A stretch of 64,000 nucleotides of DNA from an uncultured Solirubrobacterales bacterium (GCA_963799995.1 CAWCZI010000012.1:1964492-2028491); one strand, 5' to 3'; positions 6,807-38,506 are shown, counted from the first letter of the stretch. Numbers and translations: made by a program. The notes: generated from the sequence alone by a model not told the origin.

Positions 6807-7811
6807 TCAGCACGGGTTCCGACGAGCCCAGGCCAGGAAGTCGCGGGTTGCCTGCGGGGTACTGGCAAGCCGGCGTTCGCGCTGCTTGAGGGCGTGAGCG
6901 GTCTCCGAGCGGCTGAACACCCAGCCCAGCGTCTGAATCCGCCGCGCCATCAGGAACGTGGGCAGCTCGGCCGGCAACAGGTCGGGGAGCTCTCGAATCT
7001 GTCGGTAGCCGTCGACCAGGGCGTCCCGACGATCCCCCAGACTGCCAGTTCGGTCGTAGGGGTACAGGGCGACGGCGAACTCGTGCCCGTACCAGCTGTG
7101 TCCGCTGTCGTCGAAGTCGATGACGACGACCGCGCCGTCGTCGCAGACAAGGACGTTCTCGAACCCCAGGTCGCCGTGGATCAGCCCGAACCGATCCGGC
7201 CGTTCGCCGATCACATCCAGCCGCGCCCGGACCTCGGTCCGGCACGCCTCCAGCGCGGCCCGGTCATCCGCGGCGAACACGGAATGGGGGTCGGGCGGTC
7301 CCCACCGTGGATCGTCTCCCACCAGCGCCTCGGCGTCCCACGCGGGCCGCAAAAACCACGGGGGCGCCGCCCACGCGCGCGCGTGCGCGTGAATACGCGC
7401 CATTAATTCCCCCAGCCTCTCCCATGGCTTCACCTCGCTGACCGAACTCAGCGGTACGCCGTCGATCCACTCGAACAGCACCGCGGTGCGAGAGCAGCCC
7501 GGGCCGGCGGTCGCGGTCTGGAGCGGATCGCCATCGCATCCGGGCACCGCCGCGGCGGTCCGTACGCCGCTGCCCCGCAGGCTCTCCATCCACGCCAGCT
7601 CGGATCGAATCGCCGCGGCGGACTGGTATCCGGGCCGGTGAACGCGCAGGGCAAAGCGCCGTCCGTCCGGGGCGTGGATCCTGTACGTCGTGTTCTCGCC
7701 GTGGCGCACGAACGTGGCGCGGGCCTGTCCGCTGAACCCGAAGCGAGCCATCGCGTCGGCGACCAGAGCGGCCGGCAGCGGATCGCCGGCCACCTGGCCC
7801 GCCGACCTCAC
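6807..7811 (-). CDS. APH/choline-kinase-like phosphotransferase (amino-alcohol kinase type)
   Basis: ENTTYR, LRVHRPGY..AIRSELAWM, Brenner motif IHGDLGFENVL, IDFDDSG. GTGA overlap with the aminotransferase stop. Confidence 0.88.
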   Translation of the reverse strand: MRSAGQVAGDPLPAALVADAMARFGFSGQARATFVRHGENTTYRIHAPDGRRFALRVHRPGYQSAAAIRSELAWMESLRGSGVRTAAAVPGCDGDPLQTATAGPGCSRTAVLFEWIDGVPLSSVSEVKPWERLGELMARIHAHARAWAAPPWFLRPAWDAEALVGDDPRWGPPDPHSVFAADDRAALEACRTEVRARLDVIGERPDRFGLIHGDLGFENVLVCDDGAVVVIDFDDSGHSWYGHEFAVALYPYDRTGSLGDRRDALVDGYRQIRELPDLLPAELPTFLMARRIQTLGWVFSRSETAHALKQRERRLASTPQATRDFLAWARRNPC

Positions 7812-14872: not shown

Positions 14873-14889
14873 TTCGTGTACCGTATACA
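14873..14889. promoter_or_regulatory. Candidate GntR operator in the divergent BMC/oxidase promoter region
   Basis: Its reverse complement TGTATACGGTACACGAA is 15/17 identical to 19986-20002. Confidence 0.6.
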
Positions 14890-20049: not shown

Positions 20050-20763
20050 CTAGGCGGCTCTTGATGCCCGGCGGCGCCGGGCCGTGCCGGCGCTGGGCGA
20101 CTTGGCCGCCGCGCCCTTCACGGTGCGCTCGAGGCCCCACGCGATGTGCTCGATCATCGCGCGGCGAGCGCGCACCGGATCACCGGCGGCGATCTCCTTG
20201 ATCAGCGCCTCGTGCTCGGCCACGAACGCGTCGTGCGGCGAGTGAACGTAGAAATCGTGGTACGCGAGAGCGCTGATGGCCCGGCCCCAGATCGCGTCGA
20301 AGAAGTTGAGCAGGTACGAGTTGCCGGTTGCCTGCACGATTGACCGGTGAACCGAGCGGTTGGCTTCGAACGACTCCCGGGTGGACCGCAGCTTTCTCGC
20401 GGTGGCCGCCGCGAGCGCGTCCCTCACCTGCGCCAGCGCGTTCGGACCGAGCTCAGCGACGATCGCGGCGGCGTGGCCCTCGACCGCGTCTCGCGCCCCG
20501 TAGAGATCGCGCACGTCTGAGTCCGACAGGCTGCGCACGACGTATCCGCGGCGTCCTGAAGGCTCCACCACGCCCTCTTCCTTGAGCCGCAGAAGAGCGT
20601 CGCGCACCGGCGTCCGGCTGACGTCGAGCTCTTCGGCCAGGCGGTCCTGGATCAGCCGATCGCCGGGATTGACCGTCCCCTGCACCAGCGCCTCGACGAG
20701 CCGGTCATAGACCTCGCTCGCGAGCCGGGAGTGCGAGCGGTCGATGCGCTGGATTGCTGCCAT
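20050..20763 (-). CDS. GntR/FadR-family transcriptional regulator
   Basis: LDVSRTPVRDALLRL wHTH; FCD domain NRSVH...EHEAL. Confidence 0.93.
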   Translation of the reverse strand: MAAIQRIDRSHSRLASEVYDRLVEALVQGTVNPGDRLIQDRLAEELDVSRTPVRDALLRLKEEGVVEPSGRRGYVVRSLSDSDVRDLYGARDAVEGHAAAIVAELGPNALAQVRDALAAATARKLRSTRESFEANRSVHRSIVQATGNSYLLNFFDAIWGRAISALAYHDFYVHSPHDAFVAEHEALIKEIAAGDPVRARRAMIEHIAWGLERTVKGAAAKSPSAGTARRRRASRAA

Positions 20764-20772
20764 GGTCGCAGT

Positions 20773-21225
20773 CTAAAGACCTTCACCATCAATGGACGGA
20801 GTTCGATATCCGGTAATCGCGTCCACCTCCACCTCCACCATCAGCCCCGGAGTCGCCAGCTGCGCCCCGACGACGGTCAGCACCGGAGCCGCGTCTCCGA
20901 GCGCCTCGCGGTGAGCCCGCGCGAACGCGGCGGCGTCGGCCATGTCAACCAGGTAGGCGCGGGTGCGGACCACGTCGCTCAGGCTCGCGCCCACGGCTCG
21001 CAACGCCGCATCGATGCGCTGCAGGGTGAAGCGGGACTGGGCGGCCGTGTCGCCCGGCTGATGGACGCGCCCTGACCGCTCGACGGCGGTCGTGCCGGCC
21101 ACATAGACGAACGGGCCGACCCGCTTGGCGCGGACATATCCGGCGAGCTCCTCGAAGCGGCCGCCGTCACGGTGCTCGGCGCTCTCCCAGCCCTCCGCGG
21201 CTCCCATCCCCTCGACAGCCTCCAT
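20773..21225 (-). CDS. RidA/YjgF-family protein
   Basis: GYVRAKRVGPFVYVAGTT, DVVRTRAY, VEVEVDA. Start at MEAVEG. Confidence 0.85.
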   Translation of the reverse strand: MEAVEGMGAAEGWESAEHRDGGRFEELAGYVRAKRVGPFVYVAGTTAVERSGRVHQPGDTAAQSRFTLQRIDAALRAVGASLSDVVRTRAYLVDMADAAAFARAHREALGDAAPVLTVVGAQLATPGLMVEVEVDAITGYRTPSIDGEGL

Positions 21226-21249: not shown

Positions 21250-21266
21250 CGCGTTCCGTACACGAT
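21250..21266. promoter_or_regulatory. Weaker copy of the candidate operator upstream of ridA-gntR
   Basis: CGCGTTCCGTACACGAT, 13/17 identical to 19986-20002. Confidence 0.4.
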
Positions 21267-21292: not shown

Positions 21293-22389
21293 TTAGTAGA
21301 CGATGACGCTGCGGGCTGTCTCCCCCGCCTGCATGCGCGCGAACGCATCGTTGACTTCGTCCAGCCCGCAGGTGGTGATAAGGGGTGCGAGGCGCAGCCG
21401 GCCGTCGCGGTAGAGGTCGACGAGGAGGGGGATGTCGCGCAGCGGCACGCAGGAGCCATACCAGGAGCCGCGCACGCACCTTTCCTCCAGGGTGGTCGTC
21501 AGCGCGTCCAGTGCCACCCGGGTCTCGGGTGAGGCCATACCGATCAGAACCGCCTGGCCGCCGCGGCTGGTCAGCGCCACCGCGGTGTCGATCGTGTCCG
21601 GACGTCCCAGCGCCTCGAAGGCGTGGTCGACGCCACCTCCGAGCAGCTCGGTGACGGCCTCGACGGGGTCGCACTCGGCGGCGTTCACGACCGCGGTCGC
21701 GCCCAGCTCGCGAGCCAGCTCGAGCTTGGCGGCGACGACGTCGACCGCCACGATCGTGCTCGCGCCCGCGATCCGTGCCCCCTGCACGACGTTGAGGCCG
21801 ACACCCCCGCACCCGACCACCGCCACGGAGTCGCCGGGGCGCACGTGCGCGGTGTTGATGGCCGCTCCCACCCCGGTCATGACGGCGCAGCCCATCAACG
21901 CGAGCTCGGTCAGCGGAAGGCCGGGATCGACCTTCACCGCCGTCCGCGCCGGCACCACCGAGCACTCGGCGAACGAGGACGTGTTGTAGTGATGAACCGG
22001 CTCCCCGTCACGGCTGAAAGCGGCACGTCCCGTCCTCCATCGTCGCGTCGTACCAGGCCGTGTTCTCGCAGATGTTCGGCCGCCCGCGCGCGCATTGGCG
22101 GCAGTGCCCGCAGTAGGGAAGCCAGGTCAGCAGGACATGGTCGCCCGGACGCAGGCCGACCACGCCCGGACCGACCTGCTCCACCACGCCCGCTCCCTCG
22201 TGGCCGAGGACGACCGGGAGCGAGGTCGGATGGATCGCCCTGGGCGACGTGAAGGTCGGAGTGGCAGACGCCGCTGGCCGCCATGCGAATCAGCACCTCG
22301 CCCGTCTTGGGCGGATCGAGCTCGAGGTCCTCGATCACGAGCGGCTGCCCGAATTCGTGCAGGACGGCGGCCCGTATCGGCGTCGACAT
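21293..22389 (-). CDS. Zn-dependent alcohol dehydrogenase (class III/aryl-alcohol type), two +1 frameshifts (about 22238 and 22019)
   Basis: ASGVCHSDLH, then (shifted) GHEGAG...CGHCRQC...C, then GCAVMTGVG, GCGGVG, GSWYG. The net frame change matches two single-base insertions. Confidence 0.85.
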
Positions 22390-22401
22390 GAGTTCTCCCC
22401 T

Positions 22402-23656: not shown

Positions 23657-24209
23657 GCGTCCGCCGGCGCGGCGGTGAAATCGCTCACCTCGACGAGGGT
23701 CGCGATCTCGTCGGCGAGCGCGCCGCAGAAGGCCGCGTGCACAGCGTCCGCTCGGAACGCTGCCGGCCGCGATGCTCCAGATCCGGCGCCGCGCACGCGT
23801 CATCGATCAGCACCGGCGCCATCCCCAGATCAGCGGCGGCGCGGACGGTCGCGTCGACGCACATCGACGTCATCATCCCGCAGAAGGCGACGCGGCTTGC
23901 GCCCAGGGTCGCGAGGTGCTCGGCAAGGTCGGTCTGCAAGAACGAGTTGGGGTGGTGCTTGACGATCACGAGCTCCCCCTCGGCCGGCGCCACCGCGCTG
24001 TGGGTCTCCGCGCCGCGGCTTCCGGGCACGAAGAACTCGTCGCTGCCCGGCTCTTCGTGGCGGATGTGGACGACGTGAACGCCGGCCTGGCGGGCCGCCT
24101 CGATCGCCTCGGCCGCGCGGCCGGCGGCGCGCTCGGCGTGCGGGAGCGCCAGCGCCCCGCCGGGGAAGTACTCGTTCTGGATGTCGATCACGACCAGAGC
24201 GTCGGACAT
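23653..24209 (-). CDS. Cysteine hydrolase/isochorismatase-family protein, frameshifted near 23760
   Basis: LVVIDIQNEY, KHHPNSF, GMMTSMCVDAT (catalytic Cys). The C-terminus continues in another frame (VHAAFCGAL...DA*). Confidence 0.85.
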
Positions 24210-24231: not shown

Positions 24232-25788
24232 TCAAGCCGTGACGGATGCGCCGCGCTTGCGCTGGTATGCCCGCCAGGTGGGCGCCCACCGCTCCGGGTC
24301 GTCGTGTGGTGCCTGGTCGAGCTGGTGAACCGTGCTGCGCTGCGGGGACGTCATCACAATCTCGGGAGTCTCGTACGCCTCGCGGGCGACCTCGGCGATG
24401 ATCTCCGCGTACTCGTCGAGGTCCGCCCGCGAGTAGGACTCCGAGGGCTCGAGCGTCATCGGCTCGGCGACCAGCCATGGTTCGTGGCTCGGGAAATAGC
24501 TGGCGACGCCGAAGTCGGCGGTTCGCCGGGCGACGTCAACCGTACTCACGCCGGTGTCCTCATGGAGCCGCGCGAGGCTGTAGCGGATCTGCTCCAGCCG
24601 GCGCGCGGGATTCGTGTCCGCGAACGAGACGTCGAGGCCGGGCACGCCGGCCAGCCGCGAGGCCAGATAGTTGTTGTTCAGGACGGCGGTCTGCGCGACT
24701 TCCCTGAGCCCCTCGGCGCCGAGGCTGAGGATCCACGCGAACGAGCGCACGACCGTCGCCGGGACGCCATGGAAGGCGCGGATCTTGCCGACCGATTGCG
24801 GCCGGTCGTACTCGAGCCGGTACCGCGAGCCGTCGAATTCGACCGTCGGCACGGGCAGGAAGGGCTCGAGCTCGGCGGTGACGCCGCAGGCGCCGACCGG
24901 CATGCCCATCGAGCAGTGCGGCGAGGAGAACGTCTTGTGCAGGTTGAACTGGCACAGGTCGAAGCCCGCGTCGCCCGCACGGGTGATGCCGAGGATCCCG
25001 TTCGCGTTGGCCTGGTCGTAGTGGCACAGGCCGCCCGCCTCGTGGACGATCTCCACGATCTCCTCGATGTGCGGGTTGAAGAGCCCGGTGTCCTCGGGGT
25101 TGGTGATCATCAGACCCGCCGTGCGCTCCGAGACCGCCTTCCGGATCGCGTCGGGCTCCGGGTATCCCTTCTCGCCCGCATAGACCGTGATCACCTTGCA
25201 GCCCGCGGTGGCCGGCCCCGCGCCGTCGCAGGGGTGCGAGAAGATCGTGGTGATGATCTCGTCGCGGTCGGAATCGCCTCGGGCGGCGTGGTAGGCGCGG
25301 ATCATCCTCGCGTTGGCGTACACGCCCTGCGACCCACCCGCCGGCTGAAGCGTGAAGCGCGACAGACCGGAGATCGAGCACAACATGCGCTCGAATCGGT
25401 AAAAGACCTCGAGCATCCCCTGCACCGTCTCGTCGTCCTGCAACGGGTGCAGATCGGCGACCTTCGGCGAACGGATCAGCTCCTCGTTGACCTTCGGGCT
25501 GTACTTCATCGTGCAGGTGCCCAGGCCGAGATGGATGTTCACGTCGTTGCCCAGCGTCTCCTGCGACAGGCGGAGGTAGTGGCGCAGAACGCGCTGCTGG
25601 CTGCACTCGGGCAGCTGCGGCGGGCGCGAGCGGCGAAGCTCCTGAGGAATACCGGTCAGCGGTTCCTGCTCGGCGCCGGCGAGCTCGGGCTCGACCTGCG
25701 GCGGGATGATGCCGCGCTCGCCCGGACTCGAGAGCTCGAGCAGGATCGGCTCATTCCAGCTGGCCTGATGAAAGGGACGAAGGGTCAT
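24232..25788 (-). CDS. gcvPB: Glycine decarboxylase P-protein subunit 2-like (divergent)
   Basis: GLGTCTMKYSP, LQPAGGSQG, YDQANANG, FNLHKTFSSPH (PLP Lys), EPSESY. Start MTLRPFHQ overlaps the gcvPA stop. Confidence 0.85.
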   Translation of the reverse strand: MTLRPFHQASWNEPILLELSSPGERGIIPPQVEPELAGAEQEPLTGIPQELRRSRPPQLPECSQQRVLRHYLRLSQETLGNDVNIHLGLGTCTMKYSPKVNEELIRSPKVADLHPLQDDETVQGMLEVFYRFERMLCSISGLSRFTLQPAGGSQGVYANARMIRAYHAARGDSDRDEIITTIFSHPCDGAGPATAGCKVITVYAGEKGYPEPDAIRKAVSERTAGLMITNPEDTGLFNPHIEEIVEIVHEAGGLCHYDQANANGILGITRAGDAGFDLCQFNLHKTFSSPHCSMGMPVGACGVTAELEPFLPVPTVEFDGSRYRLEYDRPQSVGKIRAFHGVPATVVRSFAWILSLGAEGLREVAQTAVLNNNYLASRLAGVPGLDVSFADTNPARRLEQIRYSLARLHEDTGVSTVDVARRTADFGVASYFPSHEPWLVAEPMTLEPSESYSRADLDEYAEIIAEVAREAYETPEIVMTSPQRSTVHQLDQAPHDDPERWAPTWRAYQRKRGASVTA

Positions 25789-27179
25789 CGCAGCACCTCC
25801 GCGAGCTCGTCGGCGAGACGGTCGATGTCGGCTTTGGTATGCACCTCGGTGACGCACACGAGCGCGCTCTGCCCGAGCTCCGGATACTCCTTGTGAAGGT
25901 CGAGGCCTCCGAAGATCCCGCGCTCGCGCAGCGCCCCGTTGACCTCAGCGACAGTGCGGCCACTTTCTGAGAAGTCGACTACGAACTCCTTGAAGAACGG
26001 AGCCGAGAGCGCTGGAGCGCGGACACCCGGCAGCGCGTCCAGACGCCGGGCGGCGTAGCGCGCGCGCTGGACGATGCCCCGCCCCAGTTCGGCGAGCCCC
26101 TGTGGGCCCACCATCGCCAGGTAGGCGCCTGCCGCGATCGCCCACAGGTTCTGGGTCGTGCCGGTGTACTCCTTGGAGTCGCCACGCTGGACGTAGGAGG
26201 TTCGCTCCCACACGATCTCGCCGAAGCCGTACTCGCCCTCGACGACGGTGGGGCCCACGCCGATCAGGAACATGGGGTACTCGGAGACGAATTGCTCGGA
26301 GTCCTGCGAGGCGACGAAGCCCGCGGCCCCGCCGCCGTAATGCATGTGGATCCCGAGCGGCTGGAGCTCGCCGCAGACGATGTCCGCGCCGTAGCGCGGC
26401 GGAGCCTCGAGCACGCCGAGCGAAATGGGGTCGACCCCAACAACGGTCAGCGCACCGGCTTCCCGGGCCAGCGCGGCGATCTCTTGCGCCTGGGTCTCGA
26501 CGACGCCCAGAAAGCCGGGCATCTCGAAGTAGACGCACGCCGTGTCGGCGCTCAGCAGCTCGCGGATCCGGCCGAGGTTGAGCAGGCCGGTGGCCGAGTC
26601 AAACGCGATCGTCTCGATCTCGACCCACGGCTCGCAGTAGCCCTCGATCAGCGAGCGGCGCTCGGCTCCGATGGATGCCGGAACGAGCGCCACCTGGCGA
26701 CCGGTGATCCGGGCGGCCATGCAGATCGAGGTCGCAGCGGCCGCGCCCCAGTCGTAGGTCGGCTGGCTGACCACGTCGCACTCGACCAGCTCTCCCATCA
26801 TGCTCGCGTACTCGAACAGCGCCTGCAGCTTGCCGTGGTCGCCGTACGTGTCGCCGTAGTAGGCGGTCAGGAACTCGCCCCGGTTGACGATCTCGTCGCA
26901 CACGGCGGGGACGTAATGAGGCCAGCATCCGCCCCCGAGAAAGCTCAGCCGTTCGGCGCAGCTCTGGTTGCGGTCCAGCACGCCGGTGACGTGGCGGCGC
27001 AGCTCATATTCCGAGCGCAGCGGCTCGGGGAGGTCGAGCAGCCCGGTGACCCGCAGCCGCTCGGGAATCGAGCTGTACAGCTCCTCGGCACTGCCGGCGC
27101 CGATCGCGTCGAGCATCGCGCGCCTGACGCCGGGGGCGGAGTTCGGGATGTAGGGATGGGCGGGCGGGGCATCGCTCAC
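25785..27179 (-). CDS. gcvPA: Glycine decarboxylase P-protein subunit 1-like (divergent)
   Basis: HPYIPN, FLGGGCWPHYVP, GELQPLG..MHYGGG, YTGTTQ, VCVTE. GTG at 27179 has RBS GAGGAGG; alternative start at 27206. Confidence 0.85.
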   Translation of the reverse strand: MSDAPPAHPYIPNSAPGVRRAMLDAIGAGSAEELYSSIPERLRVTGLLDLPEPLRSEYELRRHVTGVLDRNQSCAERLSFLGGGCWPHYVPAVCDEIVNRGEFLTAYYGDTYGDHGKLQALFEYASMMGELVECDVVSQPTYDWGAAAATSICMAARITGRQVALVPASIGAERRSLIEGYCEPWVEIETIAFDSATGLLNLGRIRELLSADTACVYFEMPGFLGVVETQAQEIAALAREAGALTVVGVDPISLGVLEAPPRYGADIVCGELQPLGIHMHYGGGAAGFVASQDSEQFVSEYPMFLIGVGPTVVEGEYGFGEIVWERTSYVQRGDSKEYTGTTQNLWAIAAGAYLAMVGPQGLAELGRGIVQRARYAARRLDALPGVRAPALSAPFFKEFVVDFSESGRTVAEVNGALRERGIFGGLDLHKEYPELGQSALVCVTEVHTKADIDRLADELAEVLR

Positions 27180-27205
27180 GTGGGTGACCTCCTCAGGGCC
27201 GTTCA

Positions 27206-28312
27206 TCAGGCGACCGGATATACGATTTCGCGGTTGTAGCCGACGGTGATGCGGGTGTAGCCGGCCAGGCTCGCGTCCACGGCCGGATCGCCGGTGTCGA
27301 CACGAAGCGGAGCTCCAGCGAGGCGCGCGATCTTCGCCTCGGTGGCCACGACGACGATGCGCTCGGTGCCGACCTGTTCGATCACCGCGGCGGACAGCTG
27401 CTGGTTACCGCGGCCGAACAAGAACCCCTGTCCGCCGACCGGCGCCACGACGATGCCGGCGTCCTGCGCCGCGAGCAGCTCGATCAGGACGTCCTCGTCA
27501 GCGTCGGCGATCAGGCAGCTGCCGGCCCGGACAACGTCGACGCCGAGCAGTGTCTTCTCAAGTCCGAGCAGCGCCATGATCAGGCCCGTTGTCGTACCCG
27601 GGCCGATCAGCCATGTGCCGTCGCCCAGCACGTTGTCGATCAGGTGGTGTGCGATCTCCTCCTGTGCCAGCGCCTCGCTCCCCAGCGAGCGCGCCTTGGC
27701 GTTCTGGAGGTGACGGCGGGCGTCCGGGACGTTCATGAAGCCGTGCAGACGTGCCGACACCGCGCCGGCGCGGAGCAGCGCCTCGTCGACGTCCATCACC
27801 TCGGCCCGTCGCAAGCTCCGCATGCCGTCGCGGGCGAGACGGGCGGCCAACTCGCCGGCGCTTCTCGGGTTGACCGCGAACACCGCCGAGTGCATCTTCA
27901 CACCTGCCGGGATGCCGAGTACGGGAATCCGGTCACCGATCGCCTCAAGGACATCCACCGCGGTCCCGTCGCCACCGGCGAAGAGGAGCAGGTCGACGTT
28001 GCGATCTGCCATCGCCACGGCGGCCGCGCGCGTGTCCTGCGCCGAGGTGGACGACCCGGTACGGCCGAGCACGGTCGTCGCCACCCGGGCATCGGCGGCC
28101 GCCCGCTCGCCCATCTCGCCTGCGTAGGCCAGCACCTCCAGACCGCCACCGAGCGCGGCGAGCGGTCGCAGCGCCTCCGTCGCCCGCGCGGGAGCGCTCG
28201 GGCTCGCGCCCCGCTCGCGGGCCGCCGCCACGAGAGCGGCGTCGTCGCTGCCCTTGAACGCGAGCCGACCGCCCATGCCGGCGATCGGATTAACGATGAG
28301 ACCGAGGCGCAT
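27206..28312 (-). CDS. ATP-NAD kinase / AcoX-like protein
   Basis: MRLGLIVNPIAGMGG, FKGSD, GGDGT, GIPAGVKMHS, GGQGFLFGRGNQQ. Confidence 0.85.
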   Translation of the reverse strand: MRLGLIVNPIAGMGGRLAFKGSDDAALVAAARERGASPSAPARATEALRPLAALGGGLEVLAYAGEMGERAAADARVATTVLGRTGSSTSAQDTRAAAVAMADRNVDLLLFAGGDGTAVDVLEAIGDRIPVLGIPAGVKMHSAVFAVNPRSAGELAARLARDGMRSLRRAEVMDVDEALLRAGAVSARLHGFMNVPDARRHLQNAKARSLGSEALAQEEIAHHLIDNVLGDGTWLIGPGTTTGLIMALLGLEKTLLGVDVVRAGSCLIADADEDVLIELLAAQDAGIVVAPVGGQGFLFGRGNQQLSAAVIEQVGTERIVVVATEAKIARLAGAPLRVDTGDPAVDASLAGYTRITVGYNREIVYPVA

Positions 28313-28626
28313 CTCACGCCGGTCAGAATGCCTCGTCCAGGCCGCACGGCGCCGCCACAAAGCTGTCGCTCTCCACTGCGCTCCCTCCTTGAGTTGCGGA
28401 AGCATACGCTGCCGGTGCAGGCACGTCAGGTGCACCTCGGGTGCCCGGGTAGTGACGCTGATACGCTCGTTGAGGGTGAGCCGCATGGGTTCAATGATCG
28501 GCTTCGTCGACCGCTGGGTGGTGCTCGCGGGACGGACATGCTGCGCCGGGCGCTCGTGGGAAGGTCTGGACCGCAGCCTGGATCGGCGGGCAGGTGAGAC
28601 GCCGCCCGGCTCCTGCCAGCCCTTGG

Positions 28627-28662
28627 GGTCGGTTGCCTCGGAGCGGTCGGTTGCCTCGGAGC
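28627..28662. repeat. 18-nt perfect tandem repeat upstream of the dehydratase
   Basis: ggtcggttgcctcggagc x2. Confidence 0.8.
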
Positions 28663-28733
28663 GCTCGAACGGCTCGGGCCGCGCGGACGAGCCGGTGCTC
28701 GCCGCCGAAGACGTCAGGACCTAGTCCCGGCAC

Positions 28734-30983
28734 ATGTACGTGCAGGACACGGCGTCGCGCCGATCGGAGTTCCTCGCCACCCGGCCGATCAGTCAGGACA
28801 ACCTCGTCCCGGAAGACCCTGCGCTGGGCCTGGTGGCCTTCTCGAGCCCGTTCGACCCCGAGCCTTCACTGCGCATCGAGCACGGCCGCGTCGTCGAGCT
28901 CGACGGCAAACCCGAAGCCGAGTTCGACATGCTCGACGAGTTCATCGCCCGCCGTGCCATCGACCTCGGCGTCGCCGATGAGGCGATGGCGGTGGCGACG
29001 CTCGATTTCGCCCGGATGATCGTCGACCCGGGCGTCCCGCGAGCCGACGTCACGCGGCTCGCCGCCGGCATGACCCCGGCCAAGATCGCGGCCACGCTCG
29101 CTCTCCTCACACCCGTCGAGATCCTTCAGGCGATGCAGAAGATGCGCGCCCGCAAGACGCCGTCGATCCAGGCGCACGTGACCAACCGCATCGACCATCC
29201 GCTGTTGATCGCCGCGGACGCGGCGGCCGCCGTGGCCCTGGGGTTCCGGGAGCTCGAGACGACCGTGCCGGTGCTGCGTGATGCCCCATCCAACGCACTG
29301 GCCCTTCTGATCGGCAGTCAGGTCGGGCAGCCGGGCGCGCTGACCCAGTGCTCCGTCGAGGAGCGAACGGAGCTCGAGCTGGGCATGCGTGGGCTGACGA
29401 CCTACGCCGAGACGGTGTCGGTGTACGGCACCGAGCAGGTCTTCGTGGACGGCGATGACACCCCCTGGTCGAAGGCGTTTCTGGCCTCGTGCTACGCATC
29501 GCGGGGACTGAAGATGCGCTTCACCTCCGGCTCGGGGGCCGAGGTGCTGATGGGCGCGAGCGAGGGTAAGTCGATGCTCTACCTCGAGGCGCGATGCATC
29601 GCGCTCACACGGGCTGCCGGCGCCCAGGGCGTCCAGAACGGCGGGATCGACGGCGTCAATGTGACCGCGTCGGTGCCCGACGGCATGCGCGAGGTGATCG
29701 CCGAGAACCTCTGCGTGATGCTCCACGACCTCGAGTCCTGCACCGGCAACGACACGCTGATGTCGGCCTCGGACATCCGGCGCACCGCGCACACGCTGCC
29801 GCTGCTGCTCGCCGGCACCGACTTCCTGTTCTCGGGCTTCGGCTCGATTCCGGCCTACGACAATGCGTTCGGACCCTCGAACATGAACGCCGAGGATCTC
29901 GATGACTACCTGGTCGTCCAGCGCGACTGGGGGTTCGAGGGCGGGCTGCGCTGGCGCGAGGACGCTGACCTGCTTGCCGTCCGCCGCCGCGCCGCGGAGG
30001 CCTGCCGGGCCGTGTTCGAGGAGCTCGAGCTGGCCGAGTTCGACGACGCCGATGTCGATGCATGCGTGCGCGCCCACGGAAGTCTCGACGTTCCGGCGCC
30101 ACCGTCCGATCTCCCAGGAGTCGCCTCCGAGCGGATCATGGACAGCGGGCTCACGGCGCTCGACGCCGTGCGGGCCCTCGCCGGGCGCGGCTACGAGCTC
30201 GAGGCCGAGCGCGTGCTCGAGATGATCCGCCAGCGGCTCCTCGGCGACGTGCTGCAGACGTCGGCGATCCTGGATCAGGACCTCAACGTCCTTTCCTCGC
30301 TGACCGACCCCAACGACTACGCCGGGCCGGGCACCGGATACCGCATGTCGGCCGAGCGCCGCGGCGAGGTGGCCAGCGTCCGGCAGGTGTGGCGTCCGGC
30401 GGACCTAGCGCTCGAACAAGCGCGCTCGCAAGGTTGCATCGATCTGCGCGAGATTGGTCCGGCCGGCGCCGGCGAGCGCGCGGACGAGGTCGTGGTCGGA
30501 CTTTCGCCCGCGTTTGCCACCGAGATCTGGGAGGCGCTGAACGGGATGCCGGTCGCCGAGGTCCTGCGCCAGCTGCTCGCTGGGATCGAGGAGGAGGGGC
30601 TCGTGTCGCGCCTTGTTCGCGTGCGCCGGTCGATCGATCTCGGCAGGATCGGCTGGGGAGCTGCTCACCTCTCGGGGTCGGGCATCTCGGTGGGGCTACA
30701 GGCGAAGGGAAGTGCGCTGATCCACCGCGCCGACCTGCCCCCGCTCGCCAACCTCGAGCTGTTCTCGATCGCTCCGCGCATCACGCCGGAGCTCTATCGC
30801 GCCCTGGGTCGCAACGCAGCTCGCTACGCCAAGGGCCTGGCACCCTTGCCGCTGCTGCTCCCGGAGTCAAGCGAGCCGATCGGACCCCGCTATCACGCCC
30901 GCGTCGTCCAGCTCGTCGCGATCGAGCGCCGGATGGTGCAGGACTCACAGCCGGTCGAGCTCGAGGCGACGTGGCCGAGCTGA
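28734..30983 (+). CDS. pduC: B12-dependent diol/glycerol dehydratase, large (alpha) subunit fused to medium (beta) subunit, 749 aa
   Basis: QAHVTN, TQCSVEE, YAETVSVYGTE, GDDTPWSK, GNDT. The C-terminal part carries beta-subunit motifs (EVVVGLSPAF, GIEEEG, SGSGISVGLQAKG, LELFS). Confidence 0.92.
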   Translation: MYVQDTASRRSEFLATRPISQDNLVPEDPALGLVAFSSPFDPEPSLRIEHGRVVELDGKPEAEFDMLDEFIARRAIDLGVADEAMAVATLDFARMIVDPGVPRADVTRLAAGMTPAKIAATLALLTPVEILQAMQKMRARKTPSIQAHVTNRIDHPLLIAADAAAAVALGFRELETTVPVLRDAPSNALALLIGSQVGQPGALTQCSVEERTELELGMRGLTTYAETVSVYGTEQVFVDGDDTPWSKAFLASCYASRGLKMRFTSGSGAEVLMGASEGKSMLYLEARCIALTRAAGAQGVQNGGIDGVNVTASVPDGMREVIAENLCVMLHDLESCTGNDTLMSASDIRRTAHTLPLLLAGTDFLFSGFGSIPAYDNAFGPSNMNAEDLDDYLVVQRDWGFEGGLRWREDADLLAVRRRAAEACRAVFEELELAEFDDADVDACVRAHGSLDVPAPPSDLPGVASERIMDSGLTALDAVRALAGRGYELEAERVLEMIRQRLLGDVLQTSAILDQDLNVLSSLTDPNDYAGPGTGYRMSAERRGEVASVRQVWRPADLALEQARSQGCIDLREIGPAGAGERADEVVVGLSPAFATEIWEALNGMPVAEVLRQLLAGIEEEGLVSRLVRVRRSIDLGRIGWGAAHLSGSGISVGLQAKGSALIHRADLPPLANLELFSIAPRITPELYRALGRNAARYAKGLAPLPLLLPESSEPIGPRYHARVVQLVAIERRMVQDSQPVELEATWPS

Positions 30984-31369: not shown

Positions 31370-31423
31370 AGGCACCGGCGGGGTCCATTAGCATCTGCAC
31401 GAGCCGCCAAAGGAGAGACCGAG

Positions 31424-31879
31424 ATGACACGTCAGGAGACGACCGCCCGCCGCCAACTCGCACAGCTCGCAGCCGAGCCGCGTGGTCGCCAGCTTCTGCA
31501 ACTCGCGCTCCGGGGGATCCAGACCTCCGGCCACGGCCTCACCATCGGCTGCTGGATCAAGCCCGGCGGCGGGGTCTCCGGCTGCGTGTTCCAGCACGCG
31601 TACTGGCAGGGGATCGCCGAGGGCGCGTTCGGCCCCGGCGAGGGCGCGAGCAAAGAGATCAAGGACCTCGTCGACGAGCGCGACTTCCACCTCGTGATGG
31701 AGGCCATCCGGGCCCTCGACAGCCTCGGCAAACATCGTTTCGTGCAGCGGCGAGGGCTGAGCCGCACGCTCGACGAGACCGCCTGGCGAAGCACAGTGGA
31801 GCAGCTGCTCGTCGACGCCCTCGCCACCCCCGCGCCCGCTCCCGCGGCGGACCCAGCGGCTGTATCCGGCTCCGTGTGA
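31424..31879 (+). CDS. Hypothetical protein (151 aa) between the dehydratase and reactivase genes
   Basis: RBS GGAGAG, GC3-rich codon use, co-oriented within the cluster; no family recognised. Confidence 0.7.
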   Translation: MTRQETTARRQLAQLAAEPRGRQLLQLALRGIQTSGHGLTIGCWIKPGGGVSGCVFQHAYWQGIAEGAFGPGEGASKEIKDLVDERDFHLVMEAIRALDSLGKHRFVQRRGLSRTLDETAWRSTVEQLLVDALATPAPAPAADPAAVSGSV

Positions 31880-31882
31880 CGG

Positions 31883-33571
31883 GTGCTGGTCGCCGGCATT
31901 GATGTCGGCAACTCGACGACCGAGGTCGCGGTAGCCCGCGTCGAACCCGGGCGCGAGCCGAGCTGGCTGTTCGTCGGGCGGTGTCCGACGACCGGCACCA
32001 AGGGATCCGTGGCCTGCGTCGGAGCGATCGCGGAGCTGCTGTCGCGGGCCGAGCGCAGGCTCGGCGCTCGCGCTGAGCTCGCGCTCCTCGCCGAGCTGCA
32101 TCCGGTCAAGACCGACCTGCTCGAGCTCGGAACGATTGAGGAGCTCGCGCTGGGGCGCGCGGCGATCGCGCGACCCGCGAGCCAGACGCCCTCCGGCGCC
32201 GGGGTGGGCGCCGGACGGCTGACGAGACTCGACGACCTCGCCGGCCCACCGGCCGCCGGGGAGGTGATCGCGGTCGTACCCAGGATCGACTTCGACGCGG
32301 CGGCGAGTCGGCTTCGCGAGGCCCGCGAGCGGGGCTGGCGCATCACCGCGGCCATCGTCCACGGGGATGACGGCGTTCTGATCGGCAACCGCTTCGACCG
32401 GTCGATGCCGATCGTCGACGAGGTCACCGATGCCGCCCAGCTGCCGTTCGGAGCGCTGGCCGCCGTCGAGGTCGCCGAGCCCGGAGGGTCGACGACGGTG
32501 CTCTCGGATCCGCTGCGTCTCGGGCTCCTGCTCGGACTGCACCCCGACGAGGCCCGCGCCGCCCGCGCCGCCGCCCGCGCCGTCGCCGGCTGCCGAGCGG
32601 CGGTCGTCGTTCGCACCGAACGCTCGGCGCAGAGCCGGCGGCCCGCCGATGCCGCGGTCCACCTCATCGACGATCAGGGTGGCGAGCAGCGGCTGGACGA
32701 GCGCGCCGATCCGCCGCCGCCCGGCGTCATCAAGGCGATCCGCGGCGCCGCCGGTGACCGCGATGATCTCCTCGACGTGGTCTGGCGCCCGCTGCCGTCC
32801 CCGCCCGAGGATCCGGGCTTCGCTCGCAGGCTCGCGCGCGAGCGGGCGATCGCGATCGCGCTCCTGTCCCGCGGTGAGAGTGGCGACCTGGTCACGGCGC
32901 TGTCGGAGCTCTGCCCCAAGGGGGCGCGGGTCGTTGCCCGCGAGTCCGAGGCCGCGATGCTCGGGGCCGCGAGCACTCCGGGCGCCGGCCGCGCCCCCTT
33001 CATCCTCGACCTCGGCGGTGGCACTGTCGACCTGCATCACGCCGAGGGAGCGGTCGCGACCGCCGGCGGGGGCGACCTCGTGACCCGCATCTGCGCTGCC
33101 CTGCTCGGCTCGCCCGCCGCCCTCGCCGAACGGGCCAAGCGTCATCGCTCGGTTCGGGTCGAGACGCCGTTCACGCTTCACCATGAGGACGGGAGCCGCA
33201 GCTTCCTCAACGAGCCGGCCCCGCCCGACGCGCTGGCTCGCTTGTGCGCGCTCGACGGCAAGCACCTGGTCGCTCTGCCCGCCCAGCTTGCACCGGAGGT
33301 CTGGTCAAGGCTTCGGCTCGCGGCTAAGCGACAGGTGCTGGCCTTCAACGTCCGGCGGGCGATGGACGCGGTCGGGGGCGCCCCGCGCGGTGAGCTCGTC
33401 CTGCTCGTCGGCGGCTGTGCCGTCGACCACGAGGTCCTCGACGTCGTCGCCGGCGAGCTTGAGGGACACGATCTGACCATCGCCCGCGGGAACGTGCTCG
33501 GCCGGCACGGCCCCCGCGCGGCCGTCGCCGTCGGCCTCGTGCTCACCTTCGCACGCGGAGGCGGGCGGTGA
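31883..33571 (+). CDS. pduG: Diol dehydratase reactivase alpha subunit
   Basis: AGIDVGNSTTE, TGTKGS, PIVDEV, LSDPL, ESEAAMLGAASTPG, DLGGGTVD, GNVLGRHGPRAAVAVGL. Confidence 0.88.
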   Translation: MLVAGIDVGNSTTEVAVARVEPGREPSWLFVGRCPTTGTKGSVACVGAIAELLSRAERRLGARAELALLAELHPVKTDLLELGTIEELALGRAAIARPASQTPSGAGVGAGRLTRLDDLAGPPAAGEVIAVVPRIDFDAAASRLREARERGWRITAAIVHGDDGVLIGNRFDRSMPIVDEVTDAAQLPFGALAAVEVAEPGGSTTVLSDPLRLGLLLGLHPDEARAARAAARAVAGCRAAVVVRTERSAQSRRPADAAVHLIDDQGGEQRLDERADPPPPGVIKAIRGAAGDRDDLLDVVWRPLPSPPEDPGFARRLARERAIAIALLSRGESGDLVTALSELCPKGARVVARESEAAMLGAASTPGAGRAPFILDLGGGTVDLHHAEGAVATAGGGDLVTRICAALLGSPAALAERAKRHRSVRVETPFTLHHEDGSRSFLNEPAPPDALARLCALDGKHLVALPAQLAPEVWSRLRLAAKRQVLAFNVRRAMDAVGGAPRGELVLLVGGCAVDHEVLDVVAGELEGHDLTIARGNVLGRHGPRAAVAVGLVLTFARGGGR

Positions 33572-33874
33572 GCGAGCCGCTGGTGCTGGCGCTCATCGGC
33601 GACCCCACGACCGGCTCGGCGCTCGCGGCGGGGTTCGAGGAGGAGGGCGTTCCGGTGACCGTGTTGGAGGCGGAGGGGGCTCCCGAAACCCTGGCGCGCG
33701 AGGCGGCAAAACGCGCGGTGCTCGGGATCGGCATCGGGGGCGATCGCGACCGGCTGGCGCTGGTTCTCGCCGGCGGCCCGCCGCGGCCGTATCTGGAGGC
33801 CCCGGCCGCCGCCGCGCGCTTGCTCGGGCAACACGCCGCCCGCATCGCCTCCCGCCGGCCGCTGTTGAGGCTGA
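33568..33874 (+). CDS. pduH: Diol dehydratase reactivase beta subunit (PduH-like); its stop is probably lost to a 1-nt indel
   Basis: AGFEEEGVP, LAREAA, LGIGIG, GQHAARI. An out-of-frame TGA sits at 33872-33874; as sequenced it reads through into the next gene. Confidence 0.7.
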
Positions 33875-33894
33875 CTCCGGTTAGGATCCGCCGC

Positions 33895-34692
33895 ATGGCG
33901 ACGACCACCGCAAACGGCGTCGAGCTCTGGGTCGAGCAGGCGGGTGACGGCGACGACGTCCTGTTCATCTCCGGCCTCGCCGATGAGGGCGCGTGCTGGG
34001 TCGACCAGGTCGCCGGCCTCGAGGATCGCTACCGGCTGACGACCTTCGACAACCGCGGCGTGGGACGCTCATCCACGCCCGACGGGCCCTTCCGGATCGC
34101 TGACTTCGCCGCCGATACCGCAGCCCTGATGGACAGCCTCGGGCTCGAGCGGCCCCACGTGGTGGGATCCTCGATGGGCGGCGCAATCGCCCAGGAGCTC
34201 GCGCTCGCCCATCCCGACCGCGTCCGCAGCCTCGTTCTCAACGGGACCTGGTGTCGCGGCGATCGCTTTCTCCATGAGGTCTTCCGCAACTGGATGTGGT
34301 CGGCCGAGAGGGCTGACTCGATCCGCGACTTTCTGGTCACCGTGAACCTGTGGTGCTTCTCGCCTCGAATTTGGAACGAGGGCACCATGGACGGCTGGAT
34401 CGACGCCGCCGAGGCGAGTCCCCATCCGCAATCGGTCGACGCCTTCTGCCGCTCGGCGCAGGCGCTGATCGACCACGACTCGGCCGACCGAATCGCCGCC
34501 ATCACGGCGCCGACGCTGGTGACGGTCGGCGAGCTCGATCTGTGCCTTCCCGTGCGCTTCTCCGAGGGATTGGTGCAGCGCATCCCGAACGCTCGACTTA
34601 CCGTGGTTCCGGCCGTCGGGCACCAGCCGTTTCAGGAACTCCCGGACGCCTACAACCGGCTTCTGGACGAGTTCTGGCAGTCGGTCGACTGA
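33895..34692 (+). CDS. Alpha/beta hydrolase, 265 aa
   Basis: MATTTANGVELW, FDNRGVGRS, GSSMGG, GELDL, GHQPFQE. TAGGAT lies exactly 7 nt before the ATG (leaderless promoter). Confidence 0.85.
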   Translation: MATTTANGVELWVEQAGDGDDVLFISGLADEGACWVDQVAGLEDRYRLTTFDNRGVGRSSTPDGPFRIADFAADTAALMDSLGLERPHVVGSSMGGAIAQELALAHPDRVRSLVLNGTWCRGDRFLHEVFRNWMWSAERADSIRDFLVTVNLWCFSPRIWNEGTMDGWIDAAEASPHPQSVDAFCRSAQALIDHDSADRIAAITAPTLVTVGELDLCLPVRFSEGLVQRIPNARLTVVPAVGHQPFQELPDAYNRLLDEFWQSVD

Positions 34693-35218: not shown

Positions 35219-35899
35219 TCAGGTCCGCGTATCGACGACCATCGCCGCGCCCGCGCCGTCGTCGACTCTGAGCGTCGCTCCGCTCACATGCGCCGACAGA
35301 TCGCAGGCGAGCCAGGCGGCGAGTGAGCTGACATCCGTATCCGCGCGGGGGCAGAGCGCGTTCGAGCGGATACCGTGCGGCGCGCCCTCCGCGGCGAACA
35401 GCTCGGCGACGGCGATCACGCCCGCGCTCGTGACCGAGTACGCAGCGGTTTCATGGTCGGCGCGAATACCCGTGTCGGAGGCGATGTGGATCATCGAACC
35501 TCGGCCGTGCGTCCGCATCGCACCGAAGCACGCCCGAGCCACCCTGAACGGCGACGTCAGGTTCACTTCGAGGAGCTCACGGAAGCGCGCTTCTGAGGTT
35601 GCCTCGATCGAACCCGCGAACACCACGTCGGCGTTCGTGACCAGAACGTCCAGCCGGCCGCTGCCAAGCTCGAGAGCACGCTGCACCGCCAGGTTGGAGC
35701 TGGTGCGGTCACGGTGGTCGCAGGCGAGGAACGCTGCGCCGGTGTCCTGGGCGATCGACTCGCCGCGCTCGCGGCTGTGCCCCGTGAAGACAACCGCCAT
35801 GCCCTCTTCGCACAAGCGCTGTACGCACGCTCTCCCGAGCTCCGACGTCCCGCCGGTGACGAGCGCACTCCGGCCCTCGAGGCCGAGCCCGACGCTCAA
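35219..35899 (-). CDS. Degenerate SDR-family oxidoreductase paralogue
   Basis: TGGTSELG (Gly lost), NADV, YSVTS (catalytic Lys absent), shortened substrate loop. Confidence 0.8.
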   Translation of the reverse strand: MSVGLGLEGRSALVTGGTSELGRACVQRLCEEGMAVVFTGHSRERGESIAQDTGAAFLACDHRDRTSSNLAVQRALELGSGRLDVLVTNADVVFAGSIEATSEARFRELLEVNLTSPFRVARACFGAMRTHGRGSMIHIASDTGIRADHETAAYSVTSAGVIAVAELFAAEGAPHGIRSNALCPRADTDVSSLAAWLACDLSAHVSGATLRVDDGAGAAMVVDTRT

Positions 35900-36675
35900 C
35901 GTCGCGCCGCCTCGCGCGCGACCGAGCTCGCCCGCACCGCGGCGCGCATGCCTCCGTCGACGAGCAGGATCGTGCCGTTGCAGAACGCGCCGTCGGCCGA
36001 GGCGAAGAAGCCGACGGCGCTCGCGACATCGGCTCCGGTTCCGACCCGAGCCAGCGGCGGCAGCGTCCAGCTGGACGGATCGGTCGCCTCGCTGCGACCG
36101 GCGGTGTACGTCGCCATGCCCGGCGCGGTGTCGCCCGGGCAGACGGCGTTCACGCTGATCCCGTGTGGCCCTCCCTCGACGGCCAGCGTTTGCACGAGCA
36201 TGTTCACCGCGCGCTTGGAGACCGAATAGGCGCCGATCGCCGTCTCACCCCAGACGCCGGCGTCCGAGGAGATCATCGTGATCGAGCCGCCCCCGGCGGC
36301 TCGAAGGTGCGGCAGACAGGCGACGGCGTAGCGGTAGTAGCCAACGAGGTTGGTCTCGAGGATCGCGTCCCACGCCTCGTCCGTGGTCTCTGACAGGTGT
36401 GCCTCGTGGAGAATTCCGGCGTTGGTCACGAGCGCGTCGAGGCCCCCGAGCCGCGCCACCGCGGCGTCGACCGAGGACCGTACCGCGGCGCCGTCGCGCG
36501 CGTCCGCACAGACGAAGTCCGCGCCCGTCCGGGCCGCGACCTCGCTCCCGCGCGCCTGGTCGCGACCCGTCATCACGACCGCGGCCCCCTCGGATCTGAA
36601 GCGCTCGACGATCGACGCCCCGATCCCGGACGTGCCGCCGGTGACCACTGCTCGGATCCCCGCCAGACGCGCCAT
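35896..36675 (-). CDS. SDR-family oxidoreductase, 259 aa
   Basis: TGGTSGIG, NAG, SS, YSVSK, VNAVCPG. Start at MARLAG with GAGGAT 7 nt upstream. Confidence 0.9.
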   Translation of the reverse strand: MARLAGIRAVVTGGTSGIGASIVERFRSEGAAVVMTGRDQARGSEVAARTGADFVCADARDGAAVRSSVDAAVARLGGLDALVTNAGILHEAHLSETTDEAWDAILETNLVGYYRYAVACLPHLRAAGGGSITMISSDAGVWGETAIGAYSVSKRAVNMLVQTLAVEGGPHGISVNAVCPGDTAPGMATYTAGRSEATDPSSWTLPPLARVGTGADVASAVGFFASADGAFCNGTILLVDGGMRAAVRASSVAREAARR

Positions 36676-36865
36676 CGGTGCGATCCTCCCACAACCCGTC
36701 CCCGACCACATCCCCCTGGCCGCGATTCGAGCCCGGCTTGGATAAATAATCCAGTTGCCAACTTGCACGCCAGGTTGGCGGGCCGTAATCTGTGCCAACT
36801 CTCCCAGGCTGCGTCTCGGATCGAAGCGAGCACGGGGGCCGGAAAACCGAAGGAGGAGAAGGCTC

Positions 36866-38506
36866 ATGGCGGAAGTCACCAGCGCTCCCAGTACCCAGCC
36901 GGAGGGGGGGCGTGGACGTCTGACCGGTTCGACCGAGCTTGCCCGTAACGCGCTCGGGCTACCTCAGCTTCTGTTCTGCATCGTGACCGGGTCGGCGCCG
37001 CTCGCGGCGATGATGTTCAACGACCCGCTGTCAGGATCCGGGATCGGCATCGCGGTACCGGCGGCGTTCTGGTTGGCGGGATTCTCGTTCATGGCCTTCT
37101 CGATCGGCTACGTCCAGATGGCGCGGCGCAACACGACCGCGGGAGGCTTCTACTCCTACACCTCCTACGGCTTCGGGCGGATCATCGGCCTGGGCACGGC
37201 GCTTGCGATCGTCGGCGCGTACCTCCTGTTCGCGGTCGGCGTCAACGGCGTGACGACGTACTTCGCCAACACCAGCATCAAGGACCTCACCGGCTTCAGC
37301 ATGGACTGGCGCATCTACGCGCTCATCCTCATCCTGCTGCTGCTCACGGTCACCTACTTCCACGTGGAGGTGGTCGCCCGGCTCCTCGGGCTCGCCCTGC
37401 TCGGCGAGTTGGTGCTCCTCTTCCTGTTCTCGTTCCTGGTCCTCTTCAAGGGGGGCGGCCCGGACGGGATCGTCTGGAGCGCACTGAACCCAGCGGGCCT
37501 GTTCGGGCATGGCGCCGGGGTGGCCGGTGCGGCGCGAGTGTTCGGCGCCTCCGCGGCCGGCGTGGGCTTCTTCGGCGCGTACTGGTCCTGGGTCGGTTTT
37601 GAGATGGCGCCCAACTACGCCGAGGAGGCGCGCAACCCGAAGAAGATGATGGCCTACGCCACCTACGGCTCGGTGATCGGACTGGCCGTCGTGTTCACCT
37701 TCTGGGCATGGATGCTCGTGACCTCCTACGGAGGGGCCAAGGACCAGTGGCCATGGGCCGTCGCGGTCCAGTACGGCATCCACGCGCACGCGCCTGCGAG
37801 CGTCGGGCTGCCGGCCGGCAACTACGCCAGCGTCTACTACCCGGTCGCGCAGAAGTTCGGCGGCGTCTGGCTGAAGGACCTGTTCGAGATCTTCATCATC
37901 ACGGGCTCGTTCGCCTGCTCGCTGGCGTTCTGGAACACATCGAACCGCTACCTGTTCTCGATGGGCCGAGAGGGCATCCTGCCGCGGGCCTTCGGGCGGA
38001 CGCACTCCTCGCACAAGAGCCCATTCGTCGCGACGATGTTCACGTTCTGCTTCGTGATCGTGTTCACGCTGCTGTTCGCGGTGGGCATCATGGGCGGTGC
38101 TCAGCGCTCGGCGCTCAAGGTCGGTGTGTCGGACCCGATCGTCGCGCTCTCACAGGTCGGGACGTGGTGGCCGTTCCAGGGGAATCTGCTCTTGTTCTCG
38201 ATCATGTCGCTGTGCAGCCTCGCGATCGTGGTCTACTTCCTCAGACCCGAGAACCGAGACGGCTTCCACTGGTTCAAGACCTTCCTGGCTCCGATCCTGG
38301 GGGCCGGGTCGATCATGTTCGCGATCTACCTGATGATCAGCAACCGGGGGACGCTCCTGGGCACTCCGAACACCGGCTTCGCATTCCTGACGCCGTTCAT
38401 CGCGCTCGCTGTCTTCCTAGCCGGCTGCGTCCTCGCTGTCATCTACAGGCGGTGGTCGGTCGCGCGCTACGAGGCGGTGGGTAAGTTCGTCCACGAAGAG
38501 GCCTGA
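36866..38506 (+). CDS. APC-family amino acid/amine permease
   Basis: GSAPL in TM1, AGGFYSY, GFEMAPNYAEE, about 12 hydrophobic segments; RBS AGGAGG. Confidence 0.92.
   Translation: MAEVTSAPSTQPEGGRGRLTGSTELARNALGLPQLLFCIVTGSAPLAAMMFNDPLSGSGIGIAVPAAFWLAGFSFMAFSIGYVQMARRNTTAGGFYSYTSYGFGRIIGLGTALAIVGAYLLFAVGVNGVTTYFANTSIKDLTGFSMDWRIYALILILLLLTVTYFHVEVVARLLGLALLGELVLLFLFSFLVLFKGGGPDGIVWSALNPAGLFGHGAGVAGAARVFGASAAGVGFFGAYWSWVGFEMAPNYAEEARNPKKMMAYATYGSVIGLAVVFTFWAWMLVTSYGGAKDQWPWAVAVQYGIHAHAPASVGLPAGNYASVYYPVAQKFGGVWLKDLFEIFIITGSFACSLAFWNTSNRYLFSMGREGILPRAFGRTHSSHKSPFVATMFTFCFVIVFTLLFAVGIMGGAQRSALKVGVSDPIVALSQVGTWWPFQGNLLLFSIMSLCSLAIVVYFLRPENRDGFHWFKTFLAPILGAGSIMFAIYLMISNRGTLLGTPNTGFAFLTPFIALAVFLAGCVLAVIYRRWSVARYEAVGKFVHEEA

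Follow-up and report, generated by a model that had tools for sequence, protein, structure and literature searches.

What do two genes for subunits of the glycine-cleavage P-protein do when the rest of that system is encoded elsewhere? The question is raised by a 64,000-nucleotide stretch of the genome of an uncultured Solirubrobacterales bacterium (contig C12, positions 1964492-2028491; hereafter the window), in which a gene of the NAD-kinase fold is followed by a gcvPA-like and a gcvPB-like gene. We refer to the three products as the kinase-fold protein, PA and PB. The original prediction, made from the sequence of the window, took PA and PB for a paralogous decarboxylase dependent on pyridoxal phosphate (PLP) and acting on an amino acid other than glycine. 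Our comparisons of sequence and gene context indicate that the pair very probably belongs to a distinct, non-glycine enzyme family. The best overall explanation, which we put forward tentatively, is a P-protein-derived α/β PLP enzyme of a separate clade that decarboxylates a non-glycine amino compound independently of H-protein. Decarboxylation without H-protein, taken as a statement of mechanism, is a slightly more tentative proposal still.

A second, divergent P-protein pair

Whole-genome searches with the GCV_H, GCV_T and Pyr_redox_dim (Lpd-type) families gave no match within the window, in agreement with the claimed absence of gcvT, gcvH and lpd from its 64 kb. Outside it, the genome carries GcvH and several Lpd-type genes, and a canonical gcvT-gcvH-gcvPA-gcvPB cluster lies on the same contig, 1.65 Mb from the trio (C12:340062-344370). 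The pair is therefore a paralogue and not the genome's only GcvP, as had been proposed. PA is ≈ 35% identical to the canonical subunit of this genome and its relatives, and PB and its canonical counterpart in the genome share 40% identity. Among 24 other genomes of the genus, two contain close orthologues (83-84% identity) and one a divergent copy (51%); with this genome there are thus four carriers, and canonical PA is present in all of them. Sixteen genomes from other families of the order have the canonical form only (32-38% identity).

Over ≈ 3 kb (C12:340062-342816; L015 2063-4871), the reading frame shifts one or more times in each of the canonical genes gcvT, gcvH and gcvPA, a high density of frameshifts, and gcvPB is open. 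These changes are probably sequencing errors, because frameshifts are scattered in other genes of the assembly too.

We compared PA with 76 canonical representatives. A loop that reads TPYQPE.SQG in these sequences (89-99% per position) reads EFLTAYYGDTYGDHGKLQ in the window (YYGDTYGDHGK, one residue shorter), so that the altered subunit-1 loop noticed originally is borne out. Near-invariant canonical positions replaced in PA are T117, P118, Q119, E121, S123, Q124, L127, N147, S149, E159, G312, EQHI 336-339 and TSNIC 345-349; those conserved at 87-100% in canonical PA are T117, P118, Q119, E121, S123, Q124, N147, S149, G312, E336, Q337, H338, I339, S346, N347 and C349. Positions 147, 149 and 312 are S, P and M in the window, and canonical EQHI....TSNIC appears as TSYV....KEYTG.

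For PB, the canonical comparison set was small (nine sequences from related Thermoleophilia). Some 30 positions carry a fixed residue other than that of canonical PB, and the window protein has the paralogue residue at 30 of the 30 discriminating positions. YDGAN is changed to YDQAN, the canonical C-H-E-V positions at 397-402 to R-E-Q-R, and a tyrosine to His435; R397, R402 and H435 are gained, fixed basic residues. The glycine-rich loop, PHGGGGPG in canonical PB, reads PHGCGGP in most of the family and PHCSMGMPVG in an actinobacterial subclade that includes the window. The PLP-lysine motif NLHKTF is intact, as originally stated, and aligns with the same motif of canonical PBs and of chain B of the two-subunit P-protein of Thermus thermophilus (PDB 1WYT). 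Homology to the latter extends over the full length of both subunits (chain A/PA, 1.3e-61; chain B/PB, 6.9e-81). Besides this motif, the pair shares with GcvPA/GcvPB (EC 1.4.4.2) the split into α and β genes, their order and their coupling. The pattern of replacements suggests that the active-site or substrate side of the paralogue has been rebuilt, the replaced residues presumably lining the pocket.

In an unrooted FastTree phylogeny of 97 PA representatives of 50%-identity clusters, the 19 sequences with an altered loop lie behind the longest inner branch (length 0.39, SH-like (Shimodaira–Hasegawa-like) support 100), and the window PA falls in this clade, apart from canonical GcvPA. The ratio of nonsynonymous to synonymous substitution rates against orthologues is 0.11-0.20 across the three genes (PA, 0.11-0.20; kinase-fold gene, 0.15-0.17); the kinase-fold, PA and PB genes are under purifying selection. 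The tree also contains a second, independent pair of sequences (P0239 and P0256) inside the canonical GcvPA clade, with the degenerate loops YALSYSEVHQG and YQLSQSELHQG; it may represent another neofunctionalised P-protein lineage.

Glycine is an unlikely substrate, since invariant residues are replaced and the T and H partners are absent. The same replacements (at positions 87-100% conserved), the separate clade and the failure to find T or H neighbours make it most improbable that PA/PB is a redundant second glycine decarboxylase isozyme using the genome's GcvT, GcvH and Lpd. A spare copy might be of use in view of the apparent frameshifts in gcvT, gcvH and gcvPA, and both subunits score above the NCBIfam equivalog cut-offs for GcvPA and GcvPB; the frameshifts, however, are probably errors of sequencing, and the few carriers in the genus all possess canonical PA.

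A widespread module with a dispensable kinase-fold partner

In a scan of one genome per species, the family turned up in the genomes of at least 586 species of bacteria and archaea. The best 80 of these at least 586 relatives (51-88% identity) include Solirubrobacterales, Gaiellales, Chloroflexota, Bacillus, Neobacillus, Paenibacillus and Clostridia, and also Aminicenantes, Atribacteria, Bathyarchaeota and Heimdallarchaeota. Genes in high-GC loci were called with a custom filter on G+C content at third codon positions (GC3). The usual order is SDR(-SDR)-PA-PB-kinase-fold, SDR being a short-chain dehydrogenase/reductase, and Firmicutes add a sigma-54 activator upstream. The SDRs form two dedicated orthogroups, SDR-A (50-83% identity in ≈ 52 loci) and SDR-B (in ≈ 24). 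When 148 flanking proteins were tallied by Pfam family, nothing recurred but sigma-54 activators and transporters; the module is thus self-contained and occurs in varied contexts. PA and PB alone make up its invariant core; some lineages do without the SDR, and some without the kinase-fold protein.

The window pair shares with this uncharacterised SDR-PA-PB-COG3199/AcoX-like module of Clostridia, Bacilli, Chloroflexi, Asgard archaea and others an identity of 51-60% across domains of life, the PA loop Y-x-G-[ED]-x-Y-x-D-H-G-[KR], the PB substitutions and an orthologous kinase-fold partner (41-62% identity).

gcvT and gcvH adjoin the P genes in 8 of 8 canonical loci of relatives and in 0 of 84 paralogue loci (tblastn with this genome's T and H fragments, of limited sensitivity to very distant T and H proteins). 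This separation of the paralogues from any lipoyl-carrier or T-protein gene speaks against a lipoyl-dependent cleavage of some other amino acid, in which the aminoalkyl group would be passed in trans to the housekeeping lipoyl H-protein, or to another lipoyl protein, and the adduct would yield an aldehyde and ammonia for the SDR or alcohol dehydrogenase (ADH). Such a reaction would account for the retention of the whole P-protein architecture at full length, including the C-terminal domain, and AcoX-type kinase-fold genes go with the lipoamide-dependent acetoin dehydrogenase system. GcvH is present in this genome, together with the Lpd-type genes, but since almost every organism has GcvH, nothing can be concluded from this; in three complete genomes the gene is found 150 kb to 2 Mb away from the module. 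We regard lipoyl-dependent cleavage as unlikely, though the foremost of the alternatives.

The kinase-fold protein matches the Pfam families NAD_kinase (8.8e-21), NAD_kinase_C (6.2e-14) and DAGK_cat (8.8e-07), and has the GGDGT motif of the NAD kinase, diacylglycerol kinase and sphingosine kinase superfamily; GGDGT and GGQG..GRGNQQ are invariant in 41 orthologues. With ≈ 17 bits on the NCBIfam equivalogs for NAD kinase (EC 2.7.1.23; cut-offs 309-326), it stays far below the cut-off of every NAD-kinase or lipid-kinase model. An AlphaFold model (mean predicted local distance difference test score, pLDDT, 86.9) resembles these kinases in its N-terminal half only, which aligns with DgkB, NADK and SphK1 at Z 9-10, level with unrelated periplasmic binding proteins. 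No clear structural match to the C-terminal half was found in Foldseek and VIA searches; for the protein as a whole there was no sequence match in the PDB, and Foldseek gave nothing at E ≤ 0.001.

Orthologous kinase-fold partners (41-83% identity over 46 loci) are encoded at 37 of the 57 loci with flanks of 3 kb or more on each side. Searched with a profile of the family, six genomes of cultured Bacillaceae and Paenibacillus in which SDR-PA-PB is present gave no match, while control genomes scored 480-600 bits. The kinase-fold partner is therefore optional, which is new here. No fusion of the kinase-fold protein to PA was found; the longer matches were a GcvT-PA fusion or fragments. The complete genome of Clostridiaceae bacterium 35-E11 (G042, CP121688) encodes three full-length members of the kinase-fold family (at 63788, 872145 and 2551911), just one of them beside PA/PB, so the family also serves other systems.

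These data bear on a further alternative, in which PA/PB would be a PLP lyase whose substrate is a hydroxy-amino compound in phosphorylated form. By analogy with the kinase and phospho-lyase pairs for ethanolamine, aminopropanol and hydroxylysine, the kinase-fold protein would make a phospho-ester, and PA/PB would strip off the phosphate, alone or together with CO2, leaving an enamine or imine that goes on to an aldehyde. The translational coupling of the kinase gene to PA in the window, its presence next to the pair at the 37 loci, the gained basic residues of PB and the DHG[KR] end of the PA loop are all consistent with a phosphorylated substrate, and so are the RidA-type imine deaminase and ADH encoded downstream and the neighbouring diol dehydratase, which also yields an aldehyde. 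The Bacillaceae and Paenibacillus genomes that keep SDR-PA-PB without a kinase-fold homologue, however, mean that a phosphorylated substrate cannot be a general requirement, and RidA is found in just two of six related Solirubrobacterales loci. A phospho-lyase is thus, in our judgment, unlikely.

Proposed reaction and its genomic context

In the reading that we prefer, PA/PB would no longer act on glycine and would, without a lipoyl H-protein, decarboxylate a larger α-amino compound, probably hydroxylated or otherwise polar. The resulting amine would then pass to neighbouring enzymes that turn it into an aldehyde or alcohol: the class-III-type ADH and the RidA-like imine deaminase in the window, an omega-aminotransferase in a sister genome (G003), and the dedicated SDR in most other taxa. 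The occurrence of such enzymes beside PA/PB fits a pathway in which an amino acid gives an amine and this in turn an aldehyde or alcohol. A hydroxyl group, on either the substrate or the product, is the probable target of phosphorylation by the kinase-fold partner, which would be accessory rather than essential. In this genus the amidohydrolase and the P450 may prepare the substrate by deacylation and hydroxylation. Of the original proposal, then, the paralogue, its own clade, its rebuilt motifs and a non-glycine substrate as the best reading stand; that PA/PB is a decarboxylase is something we still infer.

The contexts of the module point to the catabolism of a polar amino compound imported by amino-acid-type transporters. 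A locus of the Bacillus badius type encodes a sigma-54 activator, SDR, PA, PB, a polar amino-acid ATP-binding cassette (ABC) transporter, an M20 hydrolase and an amino-acid permease, and an amino-acid permease gene is found near the trio in the window. Other Bacilli loci contain a sugar ABC transporter, a GH63-like enzyme and a GH2 enzyme. In G003, the trio comes after a polar amino-acid ABC transporter, a gene like that for dihydrodipicolinate synthase (DHDPS), an SDR, a DAO-type oxidase and, directly upstream, the omega-aminotransferase, with an IclR regulator nearby.

This divergent sister copy (L030, G003:C1, 7862-13693) has the PB motifs FMLHKTF, PKGGGGP and YDHAN and the PA loop VWGTPSSDHGR; it probably represents a subfamily in its own right, with a substrate of its own. 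A hydroxylysine-glycoside was considered as a substrate and dropped, as a supporting paper was not found and the locus is without a glycosidase.

Several observations weigh against our reading. Both subunits exceed the NCBIfam equivalog cut-offs (GcvPA, 459 against 364; GcvPB, 534 against 441), and their overall likeness to true P-proteins is high. The flanking genes vary widely between taxa, so context points to no single substrate. GcvH is encoded in all five complete carrier genomes tested, and a lipoyl carrier acting in trans is thus possible. The P450 and ADH genes are frameshifted in this assembly. Finally, our literature search found no paper on the GcvP-like/kinase-fold family.

Since both subunits pass the NCBI cut-offs for GcvPA and GcvPB, they are misannotated: pipelines give them these names, and public records of close homologues already bear the name GcvPA. 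A second glycine-cleavage enzyme may consequently be counted, probably wrongly, when metabolism is reconstructed from soil Actinobacteria, Chloroflexi, Firmicutes and Asgard or Bathyarchaeal genomes. The family is large, and once its substrate is found, the catabolism of amino compounds would gain a new PLP reaction or pathway.

The Solirubrobacterales locus

The features of the locus are collected in Table 1. The window has a G+C content of ≈ 70%. Pfam and NCBIfam searches agree with the row of genes described originally, a kinase-like gene, gcvPA and gcvPB followed by a cysteine hydrolase, a P450 and an ADH; behind these come the RidA-like gene and the GntR/FCD regulator. The kinase-fold gene probably starts at M59 of its longer open reading frame (ORF), because homologues begin there, and PB probably starts within a longer ORF as well (24232-25857, minus strand; Pfam GcvP2_C and a weak GDC-P match). 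The likely true starts coincide with the extent first given for the trio. The kinase-fold stop and PA start overlap in TGATG, the PA stop and PB start in ATGA, and the three genes form one operon. Between PB and the hydrolase gene there are 22 nt, which include a G-rich ribosome-binding site.

Table 1. Features of the trio and its surroundings, in window coordinates
Feature	Position	Strand	Basis or remark
GntR/FCD regulator, behind RidA-like gene	20050-20772	-	Pfam GntR, FCD
RidA/RutC-family, imine/enamine deaminase-like	20794-21201	-	tblastn, 84.6% identity to G016 orthologue
GntR operator core, between ADH and RidA genes	21254-21264	-	direct sequence comparison
Zn-dependent ADH, like class III or N,N-dimethyl-4-nitrosoaniline (NDMA)-dependent ADH	21293-22391	-	ADH_N, ADH_zinc_N; one extra base near 22236
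Cytochrome P450	22402-23803	-	Pfam p450 and NCBIfam P450 models; split by one extra base near 23015
Isochorismatase-family cysteine hydrolase (amidohydrolase)	23685-24209	-	weak NCBIfam matches: biuret amidohydrolase, nicotinamidase, RutB
GcvPB-like subunit PB, 518 aa from MTLRPF	24232-25788	-	NF003346, 534 bits
GcvPA-like subunit PA (P0001), 473 aa	25785-27206	-	GDC-P 6.3e-53, full-length domain
Kinase-fold protein, NAD-kinase/DAG-kinase superfamily, COG3199/AcoX-like	27206-28312	-	probable start; 368 aa counted from M59
Longer ORF of kinase-fold gene	27206-28486	-	Pfam NAD_kinase N- and C-terminal domains
B12 diol/glycerol dehydratase, fused large and medium subunits, divergent from kinase-fold gene	28734-30983	+	Dehydratase_LU 1.6e-242, Dehydratase_MU 2e-28
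Candidate dehydratase small subunit ORF	31370-31879	+	by position; no Pfam match at E ≤ 0.001
Dehydratase reactivase large subunit	31880-33571	+	DDR domains
Reactivase-small-like (Dehydratase_MU-like) domain fused to α/β hydrolase	33568-34692	+	Pfam Dehydratase_MU, Abhydrolase

The locus is a genus-level variant of the module and in this respect is new: the kinase-fold gene comes first instead of last, the dedicated SDR orthologues are missing, and the operon has recruited the amidohydrolase, P450, class-III-type ADH and RidA-like genes and faces a B12 diol dehydratase. The kinase-fold gene is first in all copies from Solirubrobacterales, Gaiellales and Actinomycetes. No SDR-A orthologue was found in the locus or in the genome, which is 92% complete (best match 38%); an SDR of the window at 35896-36963 is only 30-38% identical to the dedicated SDRs, and the Zn-ADH occupies the operon in their place. 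The block of diol dehydratase and, divergently, kinase-PA-PB-(hydrolase)-P450-ADH is kept in six species-level Solirubrobacterales genomes. It was not found in Gaiellales or other Actinomycetes, where the trio alone persists. In an Actinomycetes metagenome-assembled genome (L039), the kinase-PA-PB trio lies between DDE transposase genes (109-1806 and 6953-7873); the flanking transposases fit the patchy distribution in the genus and suggest mobility of the trio.

The isochorismatase-like hydrolase is kept in five related genomes. P450 and ADH each have a single-nucleotide insertion relative to intact orthologues in two related loci (L031 and L033), which reflects either sequencing error or recent decay; the intact ADH orthologue (L031:18385-19482) scores 355 bits on TIGR03989. 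Threonine dehydrogenase was rejected as an identity for the ADH (tdh score 129 bits, cut-off 458), which weakens a threonine-to-aminoacetone route here. The G016 orthologue of the RidA-like protein matches the Rid family models TIGR00004 and RutC.

Shell genes of a bacterial microcompartment (BMC) are found 10-14 kb away from the gene block, and the original prediction had PA/PB make the amine or amino alcohol used by the BMC or N-methylglutamate (mgs) modules. A 17-bp GntR operator ties the BMC and mgs genes together, with cores at 14875, 19990 and 21254, the last of these just behind the ADH gene. No copy of the operator was present in the promoter region between the kinase and diol dehydratase genes (28313-28733), though, no shell gene was found within ≈ 10 kb of PA/PB in 84 other loci, and the module occurs in hundreds of genomes in unrelated contexts. 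A supply role for the microcompartment is therefore not supported, and we think it improbable. A wider scheme would make PA/PB an H-independent catabolic PLP enzyme for a hydroxylated amino compound, with the optional NAD-kinase-fold enzyme acting on the same hydroxyl; in this Solirubrobacterales genus the route would converge with the B12 diol dehydratase on one aldehyde, handled by the ADH and possibly by the MIC2 microcompartment nearby. We offer this scheme as a speculation of doubtful standing.

No riboswitch was found upstream of the paralogue operon or the canonical gcv operon. Between the kinase-fold and diol dehydratase genes lies a perfect 18-nt tandem duplication (GTCGGTTGCCTCGGAGCG twice, 28628-28665). 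The candidate small-subunit ORF of the dehydratase shows 66-76% conservation in relatives. In the fusion encoded behind the reactivase large subunit, the α/β hydrolase part has RutD/PcaD-like matches, and the fusion is kept in related genomes.

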